Origin: a virus
Lineage: Duplodnaviria; Caudoviricetes
Virus record (IMG/VR): IMGVR_UViG_3300021093_000107
Span: 1-52,409 of that record
Direction: 5' to 3' (one strand)
DNA length: 52,409 bases
Part shown: positions 34,569-49,116 of the stretch, one piece after another
How the letters are laid out: each line of letters starts with the position of its first letter
Position numbering within the stretch: position 1 is the stretch's first letter
Notes under the pieces: model-generated
Database searches by the model: none
The model's input: only the letters and a program-made list of their open reading frames with translations
What the model was told of the DNA's origin: nothing
Translations under genes and position numbers: made by a program

Positions 34569-35408
34569 TTAAACCCCCTCTTTATTAATTAAATAATTGA
34601 CGGCTTTTTGAGCCTTGGCGCTTGCGCTAATTATGAATTTTTTGTCACCTCTTAGCGCTTTAATCCATGAATCAATATAGCTTGCGTGCTGTAATTGAGC
34701 ATTAATTCCGTTATAAGCGCATAACATGCTCGCGCCTAGTTCCGCTACGAGTTCTTCAAAAGCATAACCCTCTGAGCCGAATGAATCATTTTTTAAGCGT
34801 GCTAGGCGTTTTTCTGAGCCTGTATAGTGAATTAATTCATGATAGGCGGTCGCGTAATAATCCGCACTAGTATTAAATGATGTCTTTTCGGGTAAATTTA
34901 TTTGATCGAGCGAGTGTATATAACAGGCCCTAGCGCCCCCGTGAATAATTTTGGCGCGGGTATCTTTTATAAACTTTTCGCATGATTCCATAACCTCAAA
35001 TTCGGTTATCTCTTTTTTAACTTGCGCGGGTAACCCGTCGACCATGTCTCTATTAAATACAATATAACTTTTTAACATTGGAATCTTTTTGGCCTCGCCT
35101 GATTCTTTGTCTTTGATCTCAAGTGGCTTATAAAAGATAATATTTACACCTTTCGAACCCTTGCGGACTTGCGCGCCCGCGCCTTGCGCTTGCTTATATG
35201 TTACCCATTCGCTTGATGAGCCGAATTCACCCGTGCTTTGAATTAGCGATAAATAGAAAAAATTCACGCCGTTGTATATGTTTTTTGTTATTGGATTAAA
35301 TGGTAACCCCTCGTTCGCGTTCCATGGTTTCACCCATGGCGCGACGCCCTTTTCAAGTTCTGATAGGATTTTATTTGTTATGCTTTGCGCTATGTCGTTA
35401 TTAATCAT
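34569..35408 (-). CDS. ardC: ArdC-like anti-restriction protein (ssDNA-binding domain plus zincin-like domain)
   Basis: PWVKPW, YNGVN, W.TYKQA...G.QVRKG.KG, Y.VFN, HELIH.TG...RL.R, YAFEELVAE.GA, HASYI.SW. Confidence 0.92.
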   Translation of the reverse strand: MINNDIAQSITNKILSELEKGVAPWVKPWNANEGLPFNPITKNIYNGVNFFYLSLIQSTGEFGSSSEWVTYKQAQGAGAQVRKGSKGVNIIFYKPLEIKDKESGEAKKIPMLKSYIVFNRDMVDGLPAQVKKEITEFEVMESCEKFIKDTRAKIIHGGARACYIHSLDQINLPEKTSFNTSADYYATAYHELIHYTGSEKRLARLKNDSFGSEGYAFEELVAELGASMLCAYNGINAQLQHASYIDSWIKALRGDKKFIISASAKAQKAVNYLINKEGV

Positions 35409-36420: not shown

Positions 36421-36940
36421 AAAGACTAATTTGTAAGATTAAGTATATGATTTCATTGGACATATGCCAATCAGTATACACCGTTCTACCTATTTAGGTA
36501 GATTTTTTCTTGCCTAAGATCGCACATAATGCACTCCATGAACAAAAGCATTGAAACGAACTAAAAATTAAAATTAACTAGGAGATCATTATGAAAACCA
36601 AAAATCTAATCACAGTATTATCAGCCGGAATATTATTAGCAGCAGTTAACGTTTATGCAGATGAAAATAAAGATACTAAATACAATATCAATCATCAAAA
36701 TCTTTCAAAGCGACCATATAGTCAAGCACCTACTGAATCTAAGAAAGATAATTTTGAGGGTGCAACATTAATCAACGAGCAAGTGGCGGAAGATACAAAG
36801 CATAAGCCCATGCGTCTTCATATGCTTGGTAGACAACCTTATAACGTGAAAAATTCGGACTAACCACAACTTTATACTTTACAAGGCCAGAATTAAATGC
36901 AAAAAAGTAAAAAATGAAAGACTAATTTGTAAGACTAAGT
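36421..36940. repeat. 24-bp direct repeats (36421-36444 and 36917-36940) flanking one gene
   Basis: AAAGACTAATTTGTAAGA(T/C)TAAGT, 23/24 identical. Confidence 0.9.
36591..36863 (+). CDS. Small secreted/periplasmic protein (moron)
   Basis: AGGAG RBS; Sec signal ending VYA; internal repeat LSKRPY / LGRQPY. Confidence 0.75.
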   Translation: MKTKNLITVLSAGILLAAVNVYADENKDTKYNINHQNLSKRPYSQAPTESKKDNFEGATLINEQVAEDTKHKPMRLHMLGRQPYNVKNSD

Positions 36941-36993: not shown

Positions 36994-37341
36994 CTAAATT
37001 GCTTTAGGATCTAGAGAATAAACTTTAGAATAAATAGCTTTGAGCTTAAGAAAAGATTTTTCATGAAGGTGAAACTTAGGATCTTTCTTAACATAGAGAG
37101 CAACGTGAGCCATTTCGTGAAGAAGAGTTGAGAGTATTGTTGTAAAATGACCACAAGCGGCAGAACTTATTTCAATTTGCATCTCAACTTCGTCAAAACA
37201 ACCATAAATACCTGGGTTATTAATAACCTTAAACTTTAATCGGTAGGACTTAGGCATTTTAAATTTGTTAAAAGGTGGCAGTTTGCATGCCATGTCGTAG
37301 AGGTGAGATAAGTTTTCCGAGGTTAACGTGGTAAGCTTCAT
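36994..37341 (-). CDS. SprT-like zinc metalloprotease
   Basis: TLLHEMAH followed by a downstream H...F. Confidence 0.7.
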   Translation of the reverse strand: MKLTTLTSENLSHLYDMACKLPPFNKFKMPKSYRLKFKVINNPGIYGCFDEVEMQIEISSAACGHFTTILSTLLHEMAHVALYVKKDPKFHLHEKSFLKLKAIYSKVYSLDPKAI

Positions 37342-37431
37342 AAAAACCTAGAAAGACCAGGTTAAAACAAGGAGCGCAAAGTCAGGCTGTGTAAAAAGGA
37401 GGGTTATCATAGTAGTATTATACTAAAAAAG

Positions 37432-37460
37432 TTGCGACCAAACCCCAAACTAGTATAAAA
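37432..37460 (+). promoter_or_regulatory. Putative promoter of the packaging/late operon
   Basis: TTGCGA-N17-TAAAAT upstream of 37510. Confidence 0.5.
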
Positions 37461-37509
37461 TAGTCGAATAAGCTGCAAATTCTAATCAAAGGTGTAACAG
37501 CGACACATA

Positions 37510-38151
37510 ATGAACCAAGAAGTACAACAAAATCAAGAAGATACCGTAAACCCGGTTGTGTTGATGCCTCACATAGAGGAAGGCGTACCCATACCTAGCA
37601 ATTCTAAAGAAGCACTACCCCCGTTAAACAATGAAGACCAAGTAAGACTAAGATCAAAAACGTATAAAGAGCTTGCTGATTTAACTGGGCATGACATAGA
37701 CCCGACGCCTGAACAAAGAGAAGCTGCGGAAAAGACTATGAAAGAAATGATTAAGAACCCAGATAAAAAACAAGATTTAAAGAAGTATGCGAACGATCAA
37801 GTGGCATACCTAGGAGGCTTAGTTGATGTATATAACCATGCGATTGTAGATGACCTAGCAGAATTGAAGCAGTACGTGGTAGCTAAATTAGTTTACGCGG
37901 TAGAACATACCCAGAACGTGAAAGAACAAATCGCGGCTCTACGCAGTATAGGCGAGGTAGACGGTGTTGATGCCTTCAAGAAAAAGTCTGAAGTGATACA
38001 CAAACATGAAACCATGGAAGAAGTTGAGAAAGAACTTATCACGATGTTGACGGAGTTAAAACAAAAAGTACTTAATAAAAGAGAAACTGACACTATAGAC
38101 GCAGAACTTATCGACGATGACAGAAACGACAGCACCCAAGATAACGAGTAG
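37510..38151 (+). CDS. Putative terminase small subunit
   Basis: Directly precedes and overlaps terL; helical; AL..IG...GVD.F motif. Confidence 0.55.
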   Translation: MNQEVQQNQEDTVNPVVLMPHIEEGVPIPSNSKEALPPLNNEDQVRLRSKTYKELADLTGHDIDPTPEQREAAEKTMKEMIKNPDKKQDLKKYANDQVAYLGGLVDVYNHAIVDDLAELKQYVVAKLVYAVEHTQNVKEQIAALRSIGEVDGVDAFKKKSEVIHKHETMEEVEKELITMLTELKQKVLNKRETDTIDAELIDDDRNDSTQDNE

Positions 38152-39661
38152 AGAACTCGCTGAGTTAGAAGCGTTATATAGCGTAGCTGATTCTCAGGAT
38201 AAAGTGAAACTACAACGGCTTTTAAAAGCATATAAGAGTAAGATGGTTGAGAAGTCTGGTAAAGAGAACTTTTTAGATTTTATACAACATGTGTACCCAG
38301 GATATATAGTAGGAGAGCATCATAGGAAGCTGGCTCAAATCTTTGAAGACGTTACGAACGGTAAAAAGAAACGCGTTATCGTTAACATTGCGCCACGTCA
38401 TGGGAAATCAGAGCTTATTTCTTACTTGGCACCGGCATGGTTTCTTGGCAAGTATCCACACAAAAAGGTTATTATGGCATCTCATACAGCTGACTTGGCA
38501 GTTACTTTTGGTCGTCGTGTCCGTAACCTTGTGGGGTCTGATGCGTATAAAGATATATTTCCACAGGTAGAACTACAAGCTGATAGTAAGTCAGCGTCAC
38601 GATGGGGAACTAATTTTAATGGAGAATACTTTGCTATTGGTGTTGGTGGTGCCCTCGCTGGTCGCGGGGCTGATCTTTTTATCATTGATGACCCTCACTC
38701 TGAACAAGATGCAAAACTTGGAAGGCCTGATGTATTTCTCCCTGCTTGGGAGTGGTTTCAGTCTGGTCCTCTACAGCGTCTTATGCCTGGGGGTTCCATC
38801 ATTGTAGTGATGACTCGGTGGTCTAAGCTTGATCTGACAGGACAAATTGTGGACCAGATGATTAAGAATGACGAGGTAGATCAGTGGGAGGTTGTGGAGT
38901 TTCCTGCTATTATAGAGAATAAGCAAGGTGAGATGGAGTCACTTTGGCCTCAGTTCTGGTCACTTGAAGAACTCTTATCTAAAAAAGCTGCACTTGATAT
39001 TCGGTATTGGAACTCGCAGTATATGCAAAACCCTGTATCAGAAGAAGGGGCATTGATAAAAAGAGAGTGGTGGAACATATGGGAGAATGAGTGTCCACCT
39101 GATTGTGACTTTAAGATAATGAGCTTAGACGCAGCACAAGAATCTAATAATCGAGCTGACTATAATGCATTAACAACTTGGGGTGTCTTTTTTAACGAAG
39201 AAACCAATAATTATAATATAATACTATTAAATAGTATCAAGAAACGACTAGAGTTTCCAGAGCTCAAAGAACTTTGTATACAAGAATACAAAGAATGGGA
39301 ACCCGATGCGTTTTTAGTAGAAAAGAAATCTAACGGTGCTGCACTCTATCAAGAGTTTAGACGTATGGGTATTCCTGTCGGAGAATTTACACCAGGTAAA
39401 GGCCAAGACAAGATCAGTCGTGTAAATGCAGTTTCAGATTTATTTAGAAGTGGTATTGTCTGGGCACCTGATCATAGATGGGCTCATGAAGTAATTGAAG
39501 AGTGTAATGATTTTCCTAGTGGTGCGAATGATGACTTGGTTGATAGCACGACACTAGCATTGATGCGGTTTAGACAAGGTGGCTTCATTAAGTTACCAAG
39601 TGACGAAGCTGAAGATATACCAGGGTATAGAAGTTCTCGAAACAGATTATACGCAATATAA
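38117..39661 (+). CDS. terL: Terminase large subunit
   Basis: APRHGKS, IIDDPH, VMTRW, YMQNP, SLDAA, VEKK.NG, DDLVDS. Confidence 0.95.
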   Translation: MTETTAPKITSRELAELEALYSVADSQDKVKLQRLLKAYKSKMVEKSGKENFLDFIQHVYPGYIVGEHHRKLAQIFEDVTNGKKKRVIVNIAPRHGKSELISYLAPAWFLGKYPHKKVIMASHTADLAVTFGRRVRNLVGSDAYKDIFPQVELQADSKSASRWGTNFNGEYFAIGVGGALAGRGADLFIIDDPHSEQDAKLGRPDVFLPAWEWFQSGPLQRLMPGGSIIVVMTRWSKLDLTGQIVDQMIKNDEVDQWEVVEFPAIIENKQGEMESLWPQFWSLEELLSKKAALDIRYWNSQYMQNPVSEEGALIKREWWNIWENECPPDCDFKIMSLDAAQESNNRADYNALTTWGVFFNEETNNYNIILLNSIKKRLEFPELKELCIQEYKEWEPDAFLVEKKSNGAALYQEFRRMGIPVGEFTPGKGQDKISRVNAVSDLFRSGIVWAPDHRWAHEVIEECNDFPSGANDDLVDSTTLALMRFRQGGFIKLPSDEAEDIPGYRSSRNRLYAI

Positions 39662-39672
39662 GGAAATAATAA

Positions 39673-39951
39673 ATGAATAAGAGGATACCAAGAAAAAAGG
39701 GACAACCTGCAAATTCAAAAAAACATTCTGATTTATACACAGATGAAAACCCTAAAGGAACTATTCATGGTTTAAAATTTGCTACAGCTAAAGATGCTAA
39801 AGCAAGTGTATCTAAAATTAAAAATAGTGGTCGATCTCACGCACATAAAATACAAGCAGCAATTGCCATGGAACAAAGAGCAAGAGTCATGGGTAAACCA
39901 GAAGCAGCAAAAGCATATAGAAAATTTATTAATATAAATAAAAAGTCATAA
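39673..39951 (+). CDS. Small basic hypothetical protein
   Basis: AAGGA RBS; HSDLYTDENPKGTI...HKIQAAIAMEQRA. Confidence 0.65.
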   Translation: MNKRIPRKKGQPANSKKHSDLYTDENPKGTIHGLKFATAKDAKASVSKIKNSGRSHAHKIQAAIAMEQRARVMGKPEAAKAYRKFININKKS

Positions 39952-39961
39952 AGGATAACAT

Positions 39962-42409
39962 ATGGCAAACAATATAGATAAAAGTTTAAACCAAGCACCT
40001 AAAGGTATTGAAGAGTTAGCAAGTGCACAACCGGATTTAAGTATTGAAATTGAAAATCCTGAAAGTGTGACACTTGATGATGGAAGCATGGAAATTACAA
40101 TTGTACCAGGTAAAGAAACTAATGATGAGTTTAATGCCAACCTTGCAGAAGATATGGATGAAGGTCAGCTTACTGAATTATCAGGTGATTTAGTAGGTGA
40201 ATATGATGCTGATATTAATTCAAGAAAAGATTGGTTAAATACATATGTAGATGGTTTAGAGTTATTAGGTTTAAAAGTAGAAGATAGAACAGAACCATGG
40301 CCCGGTTCATGTAATGTGTATCACCCTCTTATGACAGAAGCGTTAGTTAAGTTTCAAGCTGAAACTATGATGGAAACATTTCCAGCGGCGGGTCCAGTTA
40401 AAACAGTCATTATTGGTAAGCAAACAAAAGAAAAAGAAGACGCTGCCGAACGTGTAAAAGATGACATGAATTATCAGCTCACGGACATGATGCCTGAATA
40501 TAGACCCGAACATGAACGCATGTTGTGGGGTTTAGGTTTATCTGGTAACTCATTTAAAAAAGTTTACTACGACCCTAACATGGAACGCCAAGTATCAATG
40601 TATGTTCCTTCAGAAGATATTGTAGTGCCTTATGGTGCATCTAATTTAGAAACAGCAGAGCGTGTTACTCACGTGATGAGAAAGACTAAAAATGAATTAC
40701 ATAAATTACAAGTAGCAGGTTTTTATCGTGATGTAGATTTAGGGGAACCATATTCAGATATTGATGAAGCTGAAAAACAAATTGCAGAGAAGTTAGGATT
40801 TAATCCTACAGAGGATGACAGATATAAAATCTTAGAAATGCATGTTAATATTAATTTAGACAATGGTGATAGTGAAGATGACATAGCTTTACCTTATGTA
40901 ATAACAATTGAAAAAGGCACAGGTACTATATTAGCAATTCGTCGTAATTGGAACCCAGACGACAAACTAAAACAAAAACGTCAGCACTTTGTTCACTATG
41001 GATATATTCCTGGATTTGGGTTTTATTGTTTTGGATTAATTCACTTAATAGGTGCTTTCGCTAAATCAGGCACAATGATTCTTCGTCAGTTAGTAGATGC
41101 AGGCACTCTTTCTAACTTACCAGGTGGTATGAAGTCACGAGGTTTACGAATTAAAGGTGATGACACTCCAATCGCACCAGGTGAATGGAGAGACGTTGAT
41201 GTACCATCAGGCGCTATCCGAGACAACATTTTACCTCTACCATATAAAGAACCAAGTCAAGTATTACAGGGTTTGATGAATCAAATTATTGAAGAAGGTA
41301 GACGTTTTGCATCAGCTGCTGATATGAAAGTATCAGATATGTCTGCTCAGTCTCCAGTAGGTACTACATTAGCAATATTAGAAAGAACCCTCAAAGTAAT
41401 GAGTGCTGTACAAGCGCGTATTTATTATGCAATGAAACAAGAGTTTAAATTACTTAAAGGCATTATTCGTGATTACACTCCAACAGAGTATTCATACGAA
41501 CCTGAAGTAGGTGATCGACGTGCTAAACAATCTGACTATGATAATGTAGATGTTATACCGGTAAGTGATCCTAATGCTGCAACGATGTCACAAAAAGTTG
41601 TGCAATATCAAGCTGTAATGCAAATGGCTCAAGCAAACCCACAAATCTATGATCAAGTAGAACTTAATAAACAAATGCTTGAAGTGTTAGGTGTTAAAAA
41701 TATAGGTAAGTTAATTCCTAATGCCGATGATCAAAAGCCAAAAGATCCTGTGACAGAAAATATGAATATTATCAACGGTAAACCTGTTAAAGCATTTATT
41801 TATCAAGATCATCAAGCCCATATTCAAGTACATATGACAGCGATGCAAGATCCAAAAATTTTACAACTTGTAGGACAAAATCCACAAGCAGGCTTAATTC
41901 AAGCTGCAGCCATGGCGCATATTAATGAGCACGTAGCGTTTGAATATAGACGTCAACTTGAAGAACAATTAGGTGTTCCACTTCCTAAATTTAATGAAAC
42001 ATTGCCCGAAGATGTAGAGTTTGAATTATCTAAGGTTATGGCTGAAGCGGCTAAAAAACTTGCTACTAAATCAGCAGTTGAAGTACAACAAGAGCAAGCT
42101 CAACAACAAGCTCAAGACCCAATCATTCAAATGCAACAACAAGAGTTAGCATTAAAAGCACAAGACCTACAAATCAAACAACAAAAAACTATGGCTGATA
42201 TTGCAATTGATAAAGGCAAATTAGAATTAGAGAAAGCTAAAATGGAAGTAGAAACAAAATTATCTGGGATGGAGTTTGCTGCTAAAGCAACACTAGATAA
42301 AAATAAATTAGATGTACAAAAAGCTATTGACAGTGTAAAAATTGGTTTAGATGCAACAGTTAAAAAACATGAAATTGAAAATCAAAGGAATCAAAAACTA
42401 CAGGAGTAA
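39962..42409 (+). CDS. Portal protein
   Basis: 815 aa after terL; long Q-rich C-terminal coiled coil as in P22-like portals. Confidence 0.85.
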   Translation: MANNIDKSLNQAPKGIEELASAQPDLSIEIENPESVTLDDGSMEITIVPGKETNDEFNANLAEDMDEGQLTELSGDLVGEYDADINSRKDWLNTYVDGLELLGLKVEDRTEPWPGSCNVYHPLMTEALVKFQAETMMETFPAAGPVKTVIIGKQTKEKEDAAERVKDDMNYQLTDMMPEYRPEHERMLWGLGLSGNSFKKVYYDPNMERQVSMYVPSEDIVVPYGASNLETAERVTHVMRKTKNELHKLQVAGFYRDVDLGEPYSDIDEAEKQIAEKLGFNPTEDDRYKILEMHVNINLDNGDSEDDIALPYVITIEKGTGTILAIRRNWNPDDKLKQKRQHFVHYGYIPGFGFYCFGLIHLIGAFAKSGTMILRQLVDAGTLSNLPGGMKSRGLRIKGDDTPIAPGEWRDVDVPSGAIRDNILPLPYKEPSQVLQGLMNQIIEEGRRFASAADMKVSDMSAQSPVGTTLAILERTLKVMSAVQARIYYAMKQEFKLLKGIIRDYTPTEYSYEPEVGDRRAKQSDYDNVDVIPVSDPNAATMSQKVVQYQAVMQMAQANPQIYDQVELNKQMLEVLGVKNIGKLIPNADDQKPKDPVTENMNIINGKPVKAFIYQDHQAHIQVHMTAMQDPKILQLVGQNPQAGLIQAAAMAHINEHVAFEYRRQLEEQLGVPLPKFNETLPEDVEFELSKVMAEAAKKLATKSAVEVQQEQAQQQAQDPIIQMQQQELALKAQDLQIKQQKTMADIAIDKGKLELEKAKMEVETKLSGMEFAAKATLDKNKLDVQKAIDSVKIGLDATVKKHEIENQRNQKLQE

Positions 42410-42413
42410 TTAA

Positions 42414-42608
42414 ATGGACCAAACGCTAGAGCTATTATTGTCTCGAATAGACGATCAGCGCAAACAAGTAATTTTTAATTTAGGAGACGGAGCAGCAAAA
42501 GATTATGCTTCGTACACTAACATGGTCGGATATATACGAGGTCTATCCGTCGCAGAAAGTATCATTAAAGACCTTGCACAAAGAATGGAGACATTTGAAG
42601 ATGAGTGA
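42414..42608 (+). CDS. Small conserved head-module protein
   Basis: AGGAG RBS; Y...VG.IRGL motif. Confidence 0.65.
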   Translation: MDQTLELLLSRIDDQRKQVIFNLGDGAAKDYASYTNMVGYIRGLSVAESIIKDLAQRMETFEDE

Positions 42609-43044
42609 CATACTCACACGGGATAATACTTTGGTAGATGCACAAGGTCGACCAATTATTATTCCAACAATAGATGAAGTAGAAACGGAAGAAATTCCTA
42701 TTGAAGAAAGAGGATTACAGCTTCCAGAACCAAAAGGATATAAGATTTTATGTGCAATTCCTGAAGCATCGGAAACATATGAAAGTGGTTTAGTTAAAGC
42801 GGGACAAACAAAACACATTGAAGAACATTCAACAGTAGTTTTATTTGTGGTAAAAGTAGGCGATTTAGCTTACAAAGACGAGTCAAGATTTCCGACTGGT
42901 CCATGGTGTAAAGAGGGTGATTTTGTTTTGACACGTGCATACGCAGGTACAAGATTTAAAATCCACGGAAGAGAATTCCGCATTATTAACGACGATACTG
43001 TAGAAGGTGTGGTGCAAGATCCACGCGGCTACACTCGCGCATAG
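42601..43044 (+). CDS. groES: GroES/Cpn10-like co-chaperonin
   Basis: P.GYKIL, V.KVG..AY, WCKEGD.V....YAG......E.RIINDD.V.GVV. Confidence 0.85.
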   Translation: MSDILTRDNTLVDAQGRPIIIPTIDEVETEEIPIEERGLQLPEPKGYKILCAIPEASETYESGLVKAGQTKHIEEHSTVVLFVVKVGDLAYKDESRFPTGPWCKEGDFVLTRAYAGTRFKIHGREFRIINDDTVEGVVQDPRGYTRA

Positions 43045-43053
43045 GAGAAAGTT

Positions 43054-44085
43054 ATGGCTGACGTAAAAGATGGAGATATTGTTTTTGAATATCCAGATGA
43101 TGACGAAATACCAGCGGCTAAACCTGCTGAAGAAAAAGAAGTAGAGGCAAAAGCTGAACCTAAAAATGAAGTTAAGGTAGAAGCCAAGGTTAAAGATGAT
43201 GATATTGACCTTGAAATAGAAGACGATACACCACCACAAGATAAAGGTCGCGAGCCTTTACCAAAAGATGTGGTAGAAGAATTAGAAAAAGATACGCTTG
43301 ATGATTACTCTGAACGAGTTAAACAACGTATGGCGCAGCTTAAAAAAGTTTGGCATGACGAAAGACGCGCTAAAGAAGCAGCTGACAGAGAAAGACAAGA
43401 AGCAATTAGATTTGCTCAGCAAATTGCCGAGGAAAATAAGAAGTTAAAAACAACTTTAAGTTCTGGCGAAGCAACTTACATTGAGACACTTAAAGCAGGA
43501 TTAGAGAATCAGCTTAATTTAGCTAAACGCGATTATCGTGAGGCATATGATTCAGGTAATACTGAACAAATTATTGAAGCTCAACAAAAAATGAATGATG
43601 CTCAAATGCGATTGTCTCAAGCTCAAAGCTATAAGCCTCAATACGAAAAAACTTTACAGGAAGCAGAAAATCCTGTATATATACCACAAAATGAACAACC
43701 TTCATACAAACCAGACGACAAAGCCCTAAAATGGCAAGAGAAAAACGAATGGTTTGGTAAAGATGAAGAAATGACCAGCTTAGCGCTAGGTCTACATGAG
43801 AAATTAGTTAGAAGTGGAATCAGTCCTACATCTGATGAATATTATCGTCGTATAGATAGTACGATGCAAAAACGATTCCCAGAATACTTTGGGGATGCAA
43901 CGCTAGACGAGGAAAAACCCGCCGAGCGCACTAAACCTTCGACTGTAGTTGCTCCGGCAACGCGTAGTACCGCGCCTAAAAAAGTACGATTAACAAAAAC
44001 ACAAGTAGCGTTAGCCAAGAAATTTGGTATAACACCGGAACAATATGCAAGAGAAACTTTAAAATTGGAGAATGCAAATGGATAA
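43054..44085 (+). CDS. Putative scaffolding protein
   Basis: Acidic N-terminus, coiled coil, W...N.WFG, C-terminal LT..Q..LAKK.G.T.EQYA. Confidence 0.7.
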   Translation: MADVKDGDIVFEYPDDDEIPAAKPAEEKEVEAKAEPKNEVKVEAKVKDDDIDLEIEDDTPPQDKGREPLPKDVVEELEKDTLDDYSERVKQRMAQLKKVWHDERRAKEAADRERQEAIRFAQQIAEENKKLKTTLSSGEATYIETLKAGLENQLNLAKRDYREAYDSGNTEQIIEAQQKMNDAQMRLSQAQSYKPQYEKTLQEAENPVYIPQNEQPSYKPDDKALKWQEKNEWFGKDEEMTSLALGLHEKLVRSGISPTSDEYYRRIDSTMQKRFPEYFGDATLDEEKPAERTKPSTVVAPATRSTAPKKVRLTKTQVALAKKFGITPEQYARETLKLENANG

Positions 44086-44527
44086 TAAAAGATTAGATCG
44101 TGATTTAGAAGTACGAGAAGAATTTCAACGCGCAGATAGCTGGAAACCCGCCTCACTATTACCTGAGTTTAAAAAGGTACCTGGTTGGGCATATCGCTGG
44201 ATTCGTACTAGTGTTTTAAACGATGCTGATAATCTAAATGTTTCTTCCAAAATGCGTGAAGGATGGGAACCCGTTAAATTAGCGGACCACCCTGAAATGA
44301 AAATAATGGTTGACCAAAATGCTCGGTTTAAAGACGGAGTTGAAATTGGTGGACTATTATTATGCAAGATACCAGAAGAGTTTGTTGCTCAACGTAAGGC
44401 TCACTATGAAAACATAGCAAAACAACAAGCCGATGCAGTGGACAACAGCTTTATGAAACAAAACGATCCGCGTATGCCTCTTTTTTCAGAAAAGAAAGCT
44501 ACAACGTCGTTTGGTAAAGGTAATTAA
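44078..44527 (+). CDS. Conserved head-module protein
   Basis: W.P.S.LP...G..YRWIR..REGWEPV..IGGLLLCK. Confidence 0.7.
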   Translation: MDNKRLDRDLEVREEFQRADSWKPASLLPEFKKVPGWAYRWIRTSVLNDADNLNVSSKMREGWEPVKLADHPEMKIMVDQNARFKDGVEIGGLLLCKIPEEFVAQRKAHYENIAKQQADAVDNSFMKQNDPRMPLFSEKKATTSFGKGN

Positions 44528-44551
44528 TATAAATATTTAAAGGAGACAATT

Positions 44552-45160
44552 ATGGCTTATCCAACCGTAGACGCTCCGTATGGCTTAAAACCAGTTAATT
44601 TAATTGGCGGTCAAGTTTTTGCGGGGTCAACTCGCTTAATGGAAATTGCAGACGGCTATGCTACAAACATTTTCTATGGCGATTTAGTAAAACGTGTTTC
44701 CGATGGAACAATTGAAAAAGACACAGGTACAACTACAGCTACACCTTGCGGTGTGTTTTTAGGCGTGCAGTTCACAAATGGTTCTACCGGTCAAGTACAA
44801 CAACAACAGTTTTACCCAGCTTCACAATCAATTAAATCAGGCACTCAAATTTTTGCAGTCGTTGCAGATGATCCTGATACATTATTCCAAGTAGTTTCTT
44901 GTTCTTCTACAACAACTGTTGCTGCTATGGGTAAATCTGCGATTGGTAATAACATCGCTTTAATTCAAAATGCTGGATCAACTGTTACTGGTGATTCAAA
45001 AGTAGCAATTGACGAAGGAACACAAGCTACTACTAACACTCTACCTATTCGTATTATTGATGTGGTTAGAGATACTGCAACTGGCACTGATTCATTTGTT
45101 GAGTTTATCGTTAAGATTAATGCAACTATGCATCAGTATAACAACTCAACCGGCGTATAA
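44552..45160 (+). CDS. Putative head decoration/minor capsid protein
   Basis: APYGLKPV, IFYGDLV, DDPD..F; beta-rich; directly before the capsid gene. Confidence 0.6.
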   Translation: MAYPTVDAPYGLKPVNLIGGQVFAGSTRLMEIADGYATNIFYGDLVKRVSDGTIEKDTGTTTATPCGVFLGVQFTNGSTGQVQQQQFYPASQSIKSGTQIFAVVADDPDTLFQVVSCSSTTTVAAMGKSAIGNNIALIQNAGSTVTGDSKVAIDEGTQATTNTLPIRIIDVVRDTATGTDSFVEFIVKINATMHQYNNSTGV

Positions 45161-45172
45161 GGAGAATAACAC

Positions 45173-46084
45173 ATGGCTATTTCACGCGCACAGCTCCTTA
45201 AAGAGCTACTCCCAGGACTTAACGCTTTGTTTGGTCTAGAGTATAAACGTTACGGCGAAGAACACAAAGAAATCTACGAAACAGAGACTTCAGAACGTTC
45301 TTTCGAAGAAGAAACAAAACTATCAGGCTTTTCAGCAGCACCTGTTAAAAACGAAGGCTCAGCCATCGCTTATGACAATGCGCAAGAAGCTTTTACTGCT
45401 CGATATAATCATCAAACTATTGCTCTTGGTTTCTCCCTCACAGAAGAAGCTGTAGAAGATAACTTGTATGACACATTATCAGCACGTTACACAAAAGCTT
45501 TAGCTCGCGCTATGGCTTACACAAAACAAGTTAAGGCTGCCGCAGTTCTTAATAATGGCTTTACTGCCGGCGTAAATGCTGGTGGTGATGGTGTAGCATT
45601 ATTTAGTACAGCTCACCCACTTGTTAGTGGTGGCACAAACAGCAACACTCAATCAACTCCAACTGACTTAAATGAAACTGCACTTGAAAATGCGGTTATT
45701 CAAATTGCAGCTTGGACAGATGAGCGTGGGCTATTAATTGCTGCTCAACCTCGTAAATTAGTTGTTGCTCCAAGTAATCAATTCGTTGCAACTCGTTTGC
45801 TCGAAACTGAATTACGTGTATCAACAGCTGACAACGATATCAACGCAATTAAGAACAATGGATCAATCCCAGAGGGTTATACAATTAACCATTACTTGAC
45901 AGATTCTGATGCATATTTCTTAACAACTGATGTACCTAACGGCATGAAACACTTTGTCCGTACACCGTTATCAACCTCTATGGATGGTGACTTTGATACA
46001 GGCAACGTTCGTTACAAAGCCCGTGAACGTTATTCATTTGGATTCTCAGATCCACTTGGTATGTTTGGTTCACCAGGCGCTTAA
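45173..46084 (+). CDS. Major capsid protein (Mu gpT-like)
   Basis: MAISRAQL.KEL.PGLNALFG.EY, DG..LFST.HP, KARERYSFG.SDP; strong RBS; followed by a terminator. Confidence 0.9.
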   Translation: MAISRAQLLKELLPGLNALFGLEYKRYGEEHKEIYETETSERSFEEETKLSGFSAAPVKNEGSAIAYDNAQEAFTARYNHQTIALGFSLTEEAVEDNLYDTLSARYTKALARAMAYTKQVKAAAVLNNGFTAGVNAGGDGVALFSTAHPLVSGGTNSNTQSTPTDLNETALENAVIQIAAWTDERGLLIAAQPRKLVVAPSNQFVATRLLETELRVSTADNDINAIKNNGSIPEGYTINHYLTDSDAYFLTTDVPNGMKHFVRTPLSTSMDGDFDTGNVRYKARERYSFGFSDPLGMFGSPGA

Positions 46085-46110
46085 TTAGCATTTTGCTACG
46101 TACTACTAAG

Positions 46111-46139
46111 GGGCTTGTTTAAAACGCAAGCCCTTTTTT
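46111..46139 (+). terminator. Rho-independent terminator after the capsid gene
   Basis: GGGCTTG-loop-CAAGCCC followed by TTTTTT. Confidence 0.85.
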
Positions 46140-46230
46140 CATGGTTTTCTTGATGTTTGTTTTCATGCAATTTGAAATAATGCAGTTGTAGAGTAGAAAC
46201 TCTATATAACTTTTTGAAAAGGAAAATACT

Positions 46231-46302
46231 ATGTGGACTAAACCAGCTGCAACAGAAATGAGATTTGGCTTTGAAATAACGATGTACGTAATGAATAAGT
46301 AA
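46231..46302 (+). CDS. pqqA: Pyrroloquinoline quinone precursor peptide PqqA ([23 protein letters not shown])
   Basis: Translated by hand; W.KP and R.GFE.TMY with the E-x3-Y core; AAGGA RBS; absent from the ORF track because of size. Confidence 0.95.
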
Positions 46303-46343
46303 TGGACTGGGTAACAGACTGTTATTAATTTAGCGATAGATTA

Positions 46344-46367
46344 GGGGGTTTACAGCCTCCTTTTTTA
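46344..46367 (+). terminator. Probable terminator after pqqA, overlapping a TTTACA..TATACT promoter-like site
   Basis: GGGGGT-TTACA-GCCTCC followed by a T-run. Confidence 0.55.
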
Positions 46368-46397
46368 TGTTATACTGCTTTGAACTTAGGAGGTGTT

Positions 46398-46820
46398 ATG
46401 CCACTCAAAGACAAAGCAGCACGCAAAACCTACCATAAAAAATACCATGCAAAGTGGTACGAAGAAAATAAAGAAAAACGCCTTAAACAAATATCAGACT
46501 ATGATAAAACGCAGCCTAAAGAGTGGCGAAAAGCCATAAGTAGAAAATGTAATTTAAAACTCAGATATAATTTAACTCCCCAAGAATACGAAACTAAATT
46601 AGCTAGCCAAGATTATAAATGTGCATTATGTGGTAAAGACGCAAACGACAATATAAGACGAGGCAAAGTAGAACCCTTATGTGTAGATCATTGCCACACT
46701 ACTAAAAAATTAAGAGATTTATTATGTTTTCACTGTAATTCTTTTCTAGGACACGCCAAAGATAATCCAAAAGTTTTATCAAAAGCCGCACAATATCTCA
46801 TAGATTACCAACAAAAATAA
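46398..46820 (+). CDS. Endonuclease VII-family (His-Me finger) free-standing nuclease
   Basis: Y.LT..EY....Q...CALC, VDHCH.T...R.LLC..CN..LG...D; AGGAGG RBS before ATG at 46398. Confidence 0.88.
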   Translation: MPLKDKAARKTYHKKYHAKWYEENKEKRLKQISDYDKTQPKEWRKAISRKCNLKLRYNLTPQEYETKLASQDYKCALCGKDANDNIRRGKVEPLCVDHCHTTKKLRDLLCFHCNSFLGHAKDNPKVLSKAAQYLIDYQQK

Positions 46821-46860
46821 TGCTATAATACTTGCAAATAGTGCCAATTCAGGTATTATT

Positions 46861-46940
46861 TGGGAATCCGGGTTACCCGGCTTATCAGACTGTCCCGGCA
46901 GACGCATACAAGACGGATAAGCTTAACTTTGTATGAAGGA
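46861..46940 (+). ncRNA. Structured RNA element, probably of the Mu-gpT-DE type
   Basis: GC-rich island; GCTTATC/GATAAGC, CCGGG/CCCGG and CATACAA/TTGTATG pairings; downstream of a Mu gpT-like gene; family name is from recall only. Confidence 0.55.
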
Positions 46941-46948
46941 AAAATATC

Positions 46949-47284
46949 ATGGCACAAACAACATTCTCAGGCCCAGTCAAATCTGATAACGGTTTTGTTG
47001 GATCAACTGGACTTACTCTCGAAAACGTTTTAGGCGCTTCAGCCGCTCTTAATTTTGCTTCTATTGCAGCAGCAGCTCAAGAAGACTTAACTATTACCGT
47101 AACTGGCGCCGCAGCTAACGACGCTGTTATATTAGGCTTACCCGTTGCACCCACAGCAGGAATTGTATTTAATGCGTTTGTTTCAGCAGCTGACACAGTC
47201 ACTGTTCGCGCTACTAATATTACAGGATCTTCAGTAGACCCAGCATCAGCAACCTATAAAGTAGTTGTAATTAAAGCAAGTTAA
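46949..47284 (+). CDS. Virion protein (head fibre/decoration-like)
   Basis: MAQTTFSGPV.S..GF N-terminus; Ala/Thr/Val-rich beta domain. Confidence 0.65.
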   Translation: MAQTTFSGPVKSDNGFVGSTGLTLENVLGASAALNFASIAAAAQEDLTITVTGAAANDAVILGLPVAPTAGIVFNAFVSAADTVTVRATNITGSSVDPASATYKVVVIKAS

Positions 47285-47315
47285 TTAACCCTTTCTTAAT
47301 CTAAGGAGATTAATT

Positions 47316-47600
47316 ATGATGCAAACTGATATATTATCCACACATTTAAATGCTGATGGAGTAGTAGCTGCGTACCCTGTACGCGTCAAAGGATATCAAA
47401 TTAAACCTGGCGGTACTGCAGGACAAATTGATTTTTATGATAATGCTTCCGCTGCTTCTGGCACTATTAGATTATCACTAGACATTACAACTAACACTGC
47501 AGTTATTTCTACAATTCTTCCAGGTGAAGGTATTCGTTTTAACAATGGTGTTTATGTTGATTTACCTACCGCTGCTGGTATAACAGTATTCTATGGCTAG
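47316..47600 (+). CDS. Small virion protein
   Basis: MQTD...PGEGIRF..GVY.......TVFYG. Confidence 0.65.
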   Translation: MMQTDILSTHLNADGVVAAYPVRVKGYQIKPGGTAGQIDFYDNASAASGTIRLSLDITTNTAVISTILPGEGIRFNNGVYVDLPTAAGITVFYG

Positions 47601-47853
47601 TAAGAAAAAAGGTGTATCCTTAGCAGTCGGACGTGGTGAGAAGCTCCCTGTGTCTAAAGGCGCAGGTCTCACTGCTAAAGGTCGTGCTAAATATAATGCA
47701 GCTACTGGGTCAAACCTCAAAGCTCCTCAACCACAAGGCGGCGCTCGTAAAAGATCGTTTTGTGCTAGGATGTCTGGTATGCCCGGTCCTATGAAAGATG
47801 AAAAAGGTAGACCTACTCGTAAGGCTGCTTCTTTAAAAAGGTGGAAATGCTAA
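47593..47853 (+). CDS. Small basic protein (DUF6321-like)
   Basis: GL.AKGRA.YN...GSNLKAP...R..SFCARM.G......L..W.C. Confidence 0.65.
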   Translation: MASKKKGVSLAVGRGEKLPVSKGAGLTAKGRAKYNAATGSNLKAPQPQGGARKRSFCARMSGMPGPMKDEKGRPTRKAASLKRWKC

Positions 47854-48041
47854 TGATAAAATATTTTTCAAATTTAGATGAACATACTAAACATTTAATA
47901 GATGGGGCTTCGGTGGCAACGGTTATGGGAACATTAATGAGCTGGTTACCAGCAATCGCAGCACTATTCACTATTGTATGGACAGCTATTCGTATTTACG
48001 AAACTAAAACTGTACAAGGATGGTTAAAAAAAGGTAAGTAG
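47853..48041 (+). CDS. Small membrane protein (holin-like)
   Basis: TAATG coupling; WLPAIAALFTIVWTAIRIYET TM segment. Confidence 0.6.
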   Translation: MIKYFSNLDEHTKHLIDGASVATVMGTLMSWLPAIAALFTIVWTAIRIYETKTVQGWLKKGK

Positions 48042-48042
48042 T

Positions 48043-48279
48043 ATGAAAGCTTTCATAGAAAAAATATTTAAATTTAAGAAGCAAAAACAAAAGGAAATAT
48101 TAGATGAAATTATTCATACAGAAGTTATACAAAAAAACAAAGAAATACTTAGCAAACAAATTGAAACAAGTATTAAACAACACGTAGAAAAAGTAAAAGA
48201 AAATTTTAAAAAACCTGGACATTATTTTCCCGACTGTAATTGTTTTAAATGTGTAAGATGGAGAAATCAAAATGCCTAG
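48043..48279 (+). CDS. Hypothetical protein with C-terminal H..C.C..C
   Basis: ORF packed between neighbours. Confidence 0.5.
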   Translation: MKAFIEKIFKFKKQKQKEILDEIIHTEVIQKNKEILSKQIETSIKQHVEKVKENFKKPGHYFPDCNCFKCVRWRNQNA

Positions 48280-48703
48280 TAAATCAAAGAAACAACATAA
48301 CTTAATGGCAGCGGTAGCTAATAATCCTAAGTTTGCTAGAAAAACTGGGATACCACAATCAGTAGGAGAAGAATTTATGAAAGCGGATAAAGGCAAGAAG
48401 TTTGCAGGGGGTGGTTTGTATGCCAATATTGCTGCAAAAAAACGACGTATCGCTGCGGGGTCTGGTGAAAAGATGCGTAGTGTAGGATCTAAAGGAGCTC
48501 CTAAAAAAAGTGATTTTGCTAATGCTGCAAAAACAGCGTCCTATAAAAATGGGGGTAAAACGGATCTTAAACAAGATAAAACTATGGTTAAAAAAGCTGT
48601 AGGCATGCATGAGAAACAACTTCATGGTGGTAAAAAATCAAACTTAGCTGCTCTTAAAAAAGGTGGTATGACTAAAAGTAAAACAAAAGGAAGGATTTGC
48701 TAA
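48272..48703 (+). CDS. Lys-rich modular protein (GG-motif cluster)
   Basis: FAGGG, YKNGG and LKKGG separate distinct modules. Confidence 0.7.
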   Translation: MPSKSKKQHNLMAAVANNPKFARKTGIPQSVGEEFMKADKGKKFAGGGLYANIAAKKRRIAAGSGEKMRSVGSKGAPKKSDFANAAKTASYKNGGKTDLKQDKTMVKKAVGMHEKQLHGGKKSNLAALKKGGMTKSKTKGRIC

Positions 48704-48705
48704 TC

Positions 48706-49116
48706 ATGGATAAAGACGCTGAAAAAAGATATAGAGAATTATCACCTAAAGAAAAGTATGATTCAGCAATAAGAGCTAGAGAAGAACCTTACGATCCTTT
48801 ACAGACAGTTAAAGATTTAATTAAAGAAAAAGAAGATAAACCTGCATCACCTAAACCTGAACCTAAAAAAGAATTAAAAAAAGCATATAAAAAAGGTGGC
48901 CAAGTTGTTAAAACATTAAAAAATGCTGGGTTTTATAACAAAGGTAAAACTAAGTCGGAACGAGAAAAGATTGTTAGTAAAGTAACAACAAAACCCCAAC
49001 GGATAGGAATGGTTGAAAAAATGTTTTCAGCTAAAAAAATGGCTAAAGGTGGATTAGCATCTAAACGTGCAGATGGCTGTGCTATTAAAGGTAAAACAAG
49101 AGGCAAAATTGTTTAA
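48706..49116 (+). CDS. Lys-rich modular protein (GG-motif cluster)
   Basis: YKKGG, MAKGG; C-terminal KRADGCAIKGKTRGKIV. Confidence 0.7.
   Translation: MDKDAEKRYRELSPKEKYDSAIRAREEPYDPLQTVKDLIKEKEDKPASPKPEPKKELKKAYKKGGQVVKTLKNAGFYNKGKTKSEREKIVSKVTTKPQRIGMVEKMFSAKKMAKGGLASKRADGCAIKGKTRGKIV

Follow-up and report, generated by a model that had tools for sequence, protein, structure and literature searches.

Biosynthesis of pyrroloquinoline quinone (PQQ) draws on a peptide precursor: PqqD binds PqqA, PqqE cross-links its glutamate and tyrosine, and PqqB and PqqC complete the cofactor. The locus studied here raised the question of what the gene for this peptide, pqqA, was doing in a phage genome in which no other gene of the pathway was found. 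The genome was the IMG/VR virus record IMGVR_UViG_3300021093_000107, a linear sequence of 52,409 bases with an estimated completeness of 83%, which was analysed over its whole length and is called the window below. A first-pass annotation of the same DNA had described the gene as a self-contained transcription unit, and the parts of that reading within reach of computation were supported. We considered it probable (about 0.72) that the phage carried a functional orphan pqqA as a small host-derived transcription unit.

An orphan pqqA in a phage genome

The 23-codon gene with an E-x3-Y pair that the first-pass annotation had proposed was found in the list of open reading frames (ORFs):

46231-46302, + strand, pqqA, 23 codons plus stop, encoding the PQQ precursor peptide

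The translated peptide scored 42.1 bits against the Pfam PqqA family (PF08042, cut-off 21.1) and 40.2 bits against the NCBIfam equivalog TIGR02107 (cut-off 20). Thus, the profile check that the annotation had suggested returned about twice the curated cut-off in both cases, and a six-frame search of the record gave PqqA at 39.9 bits. The 23 residues included an N-terminal W-x-x-P leader (W2-T-K-P5) and the pair Glu15-Ile-Thr-Met-Tyr19, and the differences that set the peptide apart from the commonest one in Methylophilaceae were K/T at position 4 and V16I. To place it among its relatives, we used a degenerate DNA pattern for EMRFGFE[VI]TMY, which matched at least 120 contigs in IMG/VR and at least 120 in genomes; the counts of viral and host (genome) units, loci and versions given below refer to the matches listed. 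The W-x-x-P layout was common to all 43 viral and 36 genome peptide variants listed, and the two commonest peptides were identical between the viral and host sets. The profile scores and the near-identical host peptides supported the assignment of the ORF to PqqA of the Methylophilaceae type, which was also how the annotation had classified it.

The reported absence of pqqB-E was confirmed as far as the record, estimated to be 83% complete, extended: tblastn with PqqB-E gave no match in the window, and neither did searches for Radical_SAM and PqqD. No PQQ-dehydrogenase domain was found in the window, and a Pfam scan of 30 additional window ORFs revealed no further methylotrophy gene. The pqqA of the window was an orphan inside a genuine phage genome. 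pqqB-E genes were nearby at 0 of the 120 listed IMG/VR loci versus 27 of the 120 genome loci. Since pqqBCDE was unlinked at the other 93 genome loci and at all three pqqA copies of genome G001 (Ca. Methylopumilus universalis), linkage was not required in Methylophilaceae. G001 itself possessed pqqBCDE with no adjoining pqqA, and its three pqqA copies were orphans.

The peptide appeared to be constrained as a protein. Among 110 unique viral nucleotide versions, pS was 0.56 and pN 0.07 (pN/pS 0.13). At 11 codons the amino acid was set by our search pattern; on the other 11 codons, taken separately, the ratio was 0.27 for the viral versions versus 0.29 for the host versions. Mean entropy at codon positions 1, 2 and 3 was 0.24, 0.18 and 0.78, and this concentration of variation at third positions therefore pointed to protein-level rather than DNA-level constraint. 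We concluded from these alignments that pqqA was under purifying selection in phages. Moreover, 32 of the 110 viral versions, the window among them, encoded Arg11 by AGA, a codon found there in none of the 114 genome versions, which suggested a long residence in phages. Host pqqA genes used CGT or CGC at this position and had a GC3 of 0.46, in comparison to 0.36 in phages.

These figures bore directly on the possibility that the unit was passenger DNA, acquired from a host chromosome through illegitimate recombination and serving no phage function. Such an origin would fit the tiny size of the gene, the host-like character of the unit, the degenerate upstream box of the phage copies, a relative that had no pqqA at the capsid locus, and a second host-like stretch in the window that was 90-92% identical to host chromosomes. 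We nevertheless regarded it as quite unlikely. Over its 72 nt, the window gene showed 4 differences to the nearest viral copies and 7 to the nearest genome copies listed (at least 7 to any of these), pN/pS was 0.13-0.27 among the 110 listed viral versions, and the AGA codon was specific to phages. In addition, pqqA was retained after the capsid gene in relatives of only 65-88% DNA identity and was also found in unrelated phage types.

Such types appeared in a tblastn search in which 50,697 phage records were compared with the peptide, a check on phage DNA that the first-pass annotation had called for. Twelve records matched, and nine of them were Methylophilales or Methylophilaceae phages (Venkman, P19250A, MEP301, MEP401, MEP402 and four Melnitz records); one further match was the spring-water Caudoviricetes genome MW202481. 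Two records named 'Acinetobacter phage MD-2021a' (CAKLQF020000010.1, our locus L009, and CAKLQH020000055.1) looked bacterial and were not counted as phage; they carried ppk, a 5'-nucleotidase gene and a full pqqABCDE operon. Further methylophage names in the NCBI taxonomy (HIM624-A, phiMB624-A, MEP431-434, Venkman EXVC038S, MG-MTP1 and RSA-MFP1) did not surface in searches of this collection; these phages may be missing from it or may lack the gene, and we therefore made no claim that every cultured methylophage had pqqA.

The PqqA peptides of the GenBank methylophages had 23-24 residues, were 73-96% identical to the window peptide and were encoded between genes, as here. Cultured phage-host pairs with the gene include P19250A with IMCC19250, Venkman with H5P1 and MEP301 with FZCC2181. 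Their genomic positions differed from that of the window copy, which followed the capsid gene: they lay among recombination or early genes, at the genome end, or beside tRNA genes. Nothing was annotated at the pqqA spot in six GenBank records, and a 'hypothetical protein' was listed there in MW202481 and the four Melnitz records. In MW202481 (L002, 2067-2195, - strand) and in Melnitz EXVC044M (L008, 2961-3056, - strand) the call ran over pqqA on the opposite strand and was probably a wrong-strand call. Most gene callers have a size floor that pqqA does not reach, and a gene that would connect phages with the oxidation of methanol in lakes and oceans was therefore left unannotated even in cultured model phages.

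In the regions queried, pqqA was the only DNA common to these otherwise unrelated methylophage genomes. Together with the 3-7 dispersed pqqA copies of the putative hosts, this might indicate a role at the DNA level, where pqqA would serve as homology for integration into or recombination with the host copies (an attP-like site or a hotspot) rather than as a coding sequence. We found this highly improbable. No tyrosine integrase was found in the window, variation was concentrated at third codon positions, and identity to the host copies was only 81-91% among the matches listed. Moreover, Melnitz, assigned to Kyanoviridae by record taxonomy, also had pqqA, and T4-like phages such as Kyanoviridae are generally described as strictly lytic.

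The first-pass annotation had allowed that the gene itself might not be new, and a viral PqqA had indeed been reported in 2020 from one uncultured Lake Baikal virus population, VP_266, assigned to Methylophilaceae (Coutinho et al. 2020, Microbiome 8:163, PMC7678222). In the available part of that paper, the authors regarded PqqA as an auxiliary gene boosting methanol oxidation. The representative of VP_266 was described there as also encoding a methanol dehydrogenase and a peptide deformylase, whereas the window had no PQQ-dehydrogenase domain or other recognisable methylotrophy gene. The same part of the paper did not mention the promoter, the box, the hairpin or the spread among cultured phages, and its supplements may list more cases. 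The Melnitz paper named PQQ only as a medium supplement, present at 1 nM in the published OM43 medium. We found no other published report of viral pqqA in a literature search that covered articles outside their supplementary files.

Promoter, leader and terminator elements

The window gene was surrounded by the following elements, several of which had been pointed out in the first-pass annotation:

46108-46139, + strand, intrinsic terminator of the capsid gene, 11-bp stem and T run, upstream border of the unit
46139-46153, + strand, upstream box TCATGGTTTTCTTGA, two mismatches to the palindrome TMATGAWWWTCATKA
46173-46181, + strand, predicted extended -10 element TG-A-AATAAT (TG at 46173-46174, AATAAT at 46176-46181), no -35 hexamer
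46189-46204, + strand, leader stem-loop TAGAGT-AGAA-ACTCTA, extending to an 8-bp stem (46187-46194/46199-46206) with loop AGAA
46219-46223, + strand, ribosome-binding site (RBS) AAGGA, 7 nt before the ATG
46343-46367, + strand, intrinsic terminator of pqqA (stem 46343-46361), 8-bp stem, loop of 3 and T run
46349-46376, + strand, promoter of the next unit, TTTACA-16-TATACT with TG, 10/12 matches, overlapping the pqqA terminator, downstream border of the unit

The RBS, the AATAAT hexamer and the downstream terminator (stem and T run) were all present as annotated. The capsid terminator folded at -15.6 kcal/mol (46100-46145; z -3.14, 2/200 shuffles equal) and was missed by the consensus scan because its core stem had a 9-nt loop. 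The region after the pqqA stop (46303-46370) folded at -18 kcal/mol (z -2.13), and a terminator scan of 1.5 kb gave two sites, both of them overlapping readings of the hairpin downstream of pqqA. The leader stem-loop began 6 nt past the -10 box, where the transcript was predicted to start. An Rfam search of 45900-46600 returned a match at chance level only (E 0.78; 24 bits versus a gathering score of 78). Taken in the window alone, the two terminators were solid, and the promoter and the hairpin were only suggestions.

Comparison with other units added to this picture. About 20 of the viral loci came from relatives of the window phage, in which the capsid gene had 65-88% DNA identity and pqqA followed it. 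When these were aligned, the spacing sequence was variable and four elements stayed in position, namely the box, the -10 element, a hairpin that began 5-8 nt past it and the hairpin after the stop. The window -10 element aligned with TATAAT, CATAAT or CAGAAT in relatives and host units; the -10 pattern required A at position 2 and AT at positions 5-6, so that the free evidence lay in positions 1, 3 and 4. In 42 of 116 IMG/VR units, the motif YT[CA]ATG had its start exactly 38 nt ahead of the -10 hexamer, and the same spacing was seen in 24 of 120 genome units, in 2 of 7 GenBank phage units and in the window. Relatives also had AGGA or AGGAG at the RBS position, a GC-rich hairpin with a T run at the position of the capsid terminator, TGnTATAAT-like boxes at the position of the next promoter and, past the pqqA stop in most cases, a GC hairpin followed by a T run. 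In blastn comparisons, the matches to pqqA units of other phages and of hosts started 12-35 nt before the ATG. Of 119 viral units, 59 had a terminator-like site within 120 nt past the stop, as did 107 of the 119 host units.

The leader fold was matched by at most 10 of 300 shuffles in 14 of 20 relatives. Among 33 unique box-positive viral units, 25 had a hairpin of -3 kcal/mol or lower, and 19 of these hairpins began 5-8 nt past the -10 element. In the same 33 units, the 32 nt after the -10 element had a median folding energy of -5.5 kcal/mol, versus -2.1 in the 32-nt promoter spacer (Mann-Whitney p 3e-4). The stem sequences themselves differed among viral units.

According to crude ORF maps of the 120 listed IMG/VR loci, pqqA ran antisense to the genes on both sides in 44, had the same orientation as both in 31 and was convergent in 20. 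In the 44 antisense cases, the gene would therefore need its own promoter. The upstream neighbours scanned (n=108) included 25 endolysin genes, 14 members of the head-protein family of the window and 6 members of three other head-protein families. We also considered the combination of box and -10 element as a general promoter class of the window phage. The combination occurred 8 times in the window versus 4.2 expected from shuffles, and the extended box was present only at the pqqA site among these, so that we rejected such a class; the extended box as such occurred at only three places in the window.

The box led us to the host genomes. With at most one mismatch, the palindrome TMATGAWWWTCATKA occurred 14, 13, 9, 17 and 18 times in five Methylophilaceae genomes, and the control with the palindrome written backwards occurred 0, 9, 0, 1 and 3 times in the same genomes. 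Twelve of the 15 perfect copies lay 102-139 nt upstream of a pqqA ORF, and a coordinate comparison placed a palindrome with at most one mismatch within ~170 nt upstream of 14 of the 24 pqqA copies in the five genomes. In G001, a one-mismatch copy was also found ~100 nt upstream of pqqBCDE. At positions -160 to -50, a box with at most two mismatches was present in 80 of 118 listed host units versus 2 of 205 controls, and in 50 of 119 listed viral units versus 3 of 227 controls. The arrangement was not the same in the two sets. In most host pqqA units the palindrome was perfect or nearly so and lay ~60 nt ahead of the -10 element, with a proximal half-site at 38 nt. Phage units differed in having just one box, degenerate and placed at 38 nt.

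Since the window box was a degenerate copy of the palindrome preceding host pqqA, the phage appeared to carry a whole host-type pqqA unit. Similar stand-alone units, with box, -10 element, leader hairpin, terminator and a near-identical peptide, were represented by the orphan pqqA genes of Methylophilaceae chromosomes. The literature contained no description that we could find of the palindrome or of pqqA promoter regulation in Methylophilaceae. Thus, the box shared between host and phage was one element for which no earlier description was found, and the gene itself was already known. The shared box offers a concrete handle on the regulation of PQQ synthesis in Methylophilaceae. Candidate operator loci of a PQQ regulon were G001:C1:576378-579577 and loci L251, L252, L264-L272 and L275.

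The palindrome may resemble the consensus Fur box. The genes other than pqq beside near-matches in G001 (rhodopsin, cytochrome b561, M48 peptidase and RNase T) were unlike an iron regulon. Near-matches preceded the rhodopsin and cytochrome b561 genes themselves.

If transcription started 7 nt past the -10 element, the centre of the window box was ~42 nt before the predicted start. Activators that replace a -35 element typically sit near -42 (class II promoters). As a tentative extension, about which we remained rather doubtful, the phage may have captured a complete regulated host unit, not a bare ORF, and through the palindromic operator may have been wired into the host PQQ regulon by a class II-like host factor. 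In that event, the box on the replicating phage genome could also titrate the putative factor, and the start-site stem-loop, whose position but not whose sequence was kept, would belong to the same design.

A rival reading is regulatory interference, in which the unit would matter through its box or through the peptide as a competitor: phage box copies would sequester the host factor, or excess PqqA would occupy PqqD and PqqE, and the PQQ regulon would be rewired. The box was common to host pqqA and pqqBCDE promoters and was centred near -42 in a promoter with no -35 element, both of which would suit such a role. However, the phage boxes were degenerate, more than half of the listed viral units had no box at two mismatches or fewer, and no factor is known to bind it. 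Ordinary processing was also the simpler explanation for a peptide nearly identical to the host substrate, and we therefore judged interference unlikely.

In phage biology, a 'moron' is an autonomous insert of promoter, gene and terminator. The window unit resembled morons and PeSLs as a small accessory gene with its own terminator and predicted promoter that lay inside a conserved module and was present or absent among relatives. The PeSLs of T4-type hyperplastic regions, as described in the available portion of the report, combined strong promoters of a sigma-70-like type with terminator stem-loops (Arbiol et al. 2010, PMC2839356). Unlike them, the window unit had no -35 element, a box of the host pqqA type and a stem-loop after the -10 element, at the transcript start.

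Host, expression and proposed role

Several matches pointed to the host. Among the 120 listed genome loci, 91 were titled as Methylophilaceae-type taxa and most others had only broad labels. In a sample of 201 genomes from the family to which G001 belongs, 186 matched the window at pqqA, with 81-91% identity among the matches listed. In addition, window positions 36436-36874 matched three genomes of the same family, 1.1-1.3 Mb in size, at 90-92% identity, and G001 and genome G027 each had one full-length match to a PQQ-enzyme family. Eighteen DNA runs labelled lake water contained 47-98% of the sampled words of 43000-48000, and one of these runs may have been the source of the record. Taken together, these matches made a small-genome freshwater member of Methylophilaceae the likely host. 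Locus L232 was rejected as a host link: it was a relative's contig filed under the 'Gammaproteobacteria bacterium' assembly G006, which held no other pqqA.

Contigs from RNA libraries covered the pqqA bin in all four runs (X19-X22, word depths 177, 2041, 23 and 1369). Such contigs cannot give transcript starts or strand, and a depth of zero past 46340, seen in three runs, carried no weight. X20 (2041) and X22 (1369) were lake or freshwater metatranscriptomes, and their depths over 46173-46339 were far above those of the flanking bins. In X20 the flanks differed from the window, so that these contigs came from other pqqA copies, which hinted at abundant pqqA mRNA in situ.

Under the explanation that we favoured, the unit would be read in the order of capsid terminator, upstream box, extended -10 element, 5' stem-loop, RBS, 69-nt ORF and terminator. 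The host RNA polymerase would transcribe it during infection. The same host factor that serves the host pqqA promoters would probably be required, because the promoter had no -35 element and a dyad-like box near -42. The 5' hairpin would probably stabilise the short mRNA. The 23-residue peptide would then enter the host pathway, in which PqqD would bind it, PqqE would cross-link Glu15 to Tyr19, and PqqB and PqqC would finish PQQ. In this way, the phage may sustain the precursor for the periplasmic PQQ-dependent methanol dehydrogenase of the host while host expression falls; one peptide is consumed per cofactor, and a phage copy would therefore keep the precursor supply going. Promoter activity, the roles of the box and the hairpin, the processing of the peptide and the benefit to the phage are inferred. 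If the phage copy is expressed, the supply of PQQ precursor would count as a limiting step, one that methylotroph phages have repeatedly secured.

A number of observations weighed against a functional, host-derived unit. The consensus scan reported no sigma-70 promoter upstream of pqqA because the -35 hexamer was missing; the self-contained unit described in the first-pass annotation was bracketed by terminators, and its promoter was a prediction that lacked a -35 element. The leader hairpin, also described there, was present at its place but was not above chance in the window alone (z -1.26, 23/200 dinucleotide shuffles equal), and it was the relatives that added support. An RNAalifold run on the ungapped alignment of the 33 leaders gave 0 consensus pairs. 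The evidence for the hairpin was therefore positional and came from per-sequence folds rather than from formal covariation, which was not counted because the stems varied in offset and length. Many of the loci were related to each other, so that conservation was partly shared descent. A perfect box was found in 1 of 119 listed viral versus 41 of 118 listed host units, and the degenerate phage box, with its two mismatches, could be a decaying remnant. At the level of the peptide, Ile16 was rare, being found in 3 of ~120 listed IMG/VR units and in no listed genome unit, and nearly all relatives had Val. The putative hosts already held 3-7 pqqA copies. The contigs of run X20 ended exactly at 46230 and 46303 with foreign flanks; these ends at the ORF borders meant that at least some contigs were other pqqA copies, and the coverage did not separate the window copy from them. 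Finally, the related contig G201:C13 had no pqqA in the 27 kb read, the capsid region included.

Contig G201:C13 (54,979 bases, from a Methylophilaceae-family assembly) was collinear with the terminase, portal, capsid and tail genes of the window at 66-76% identity (37263-48751; loci L281 and L282), and represented a binned phage genome or a prophage.

Neighbouring genes of the phage

The phage character of the window was evident from the genes around the unit:

38117-39661, large terminase, PHROG match
39962-42409, portal, PHROG match
45173-46084, major head protein (the capsid gene), PHROG match
46398-46820, endonuclease VII, PHROG and PF02945 matches (ORF 46380-46820, probable start ATG 46398)

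Other matches in the window included a DNA polymerase, a helicase, a primase-helicase, a DNA ejection protein, a tail fibre and a DNA methyltransferase. The window contained 0 tRNA genes, and its G+C content was 37-40% throughout.

The endonuclease VII gene looked inserted specifically in the window phage. In the relatives L049, L034, L076 and L232, the alignment passed directly from the end of pqqA to ~46817, and a single RNA-library contig connected 46304 with 46820.

The host-like stretch at 36436-36874 contained a gene for a 90-residue protein (ORF 36591-36863) that began like a signal peptide, matched no Pfam family and gave nothing usable in a protein atlas search. The identity to the host genomes included ~155 nt upstream of its ATG. 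The phage copy was flanked by 21-nt direct repeats (36424-36444 and 36920-36940) that differed by one base, and the G027 homologue lay between a gene for a regulator with a LuxR-type C-terminus and one for a 467-residue secreted protein.

Two further genes of the window had recognisable domains. A protein with ArdC-N and zincin-metallopeptidase domains, anti-restriction-like in character, was encoded at 34569-35408 (- strand), and a 179-residue protein whose C-terminal half was a weak GroES/Cpn10 match was encoded at 42505-43044 (+ strand).

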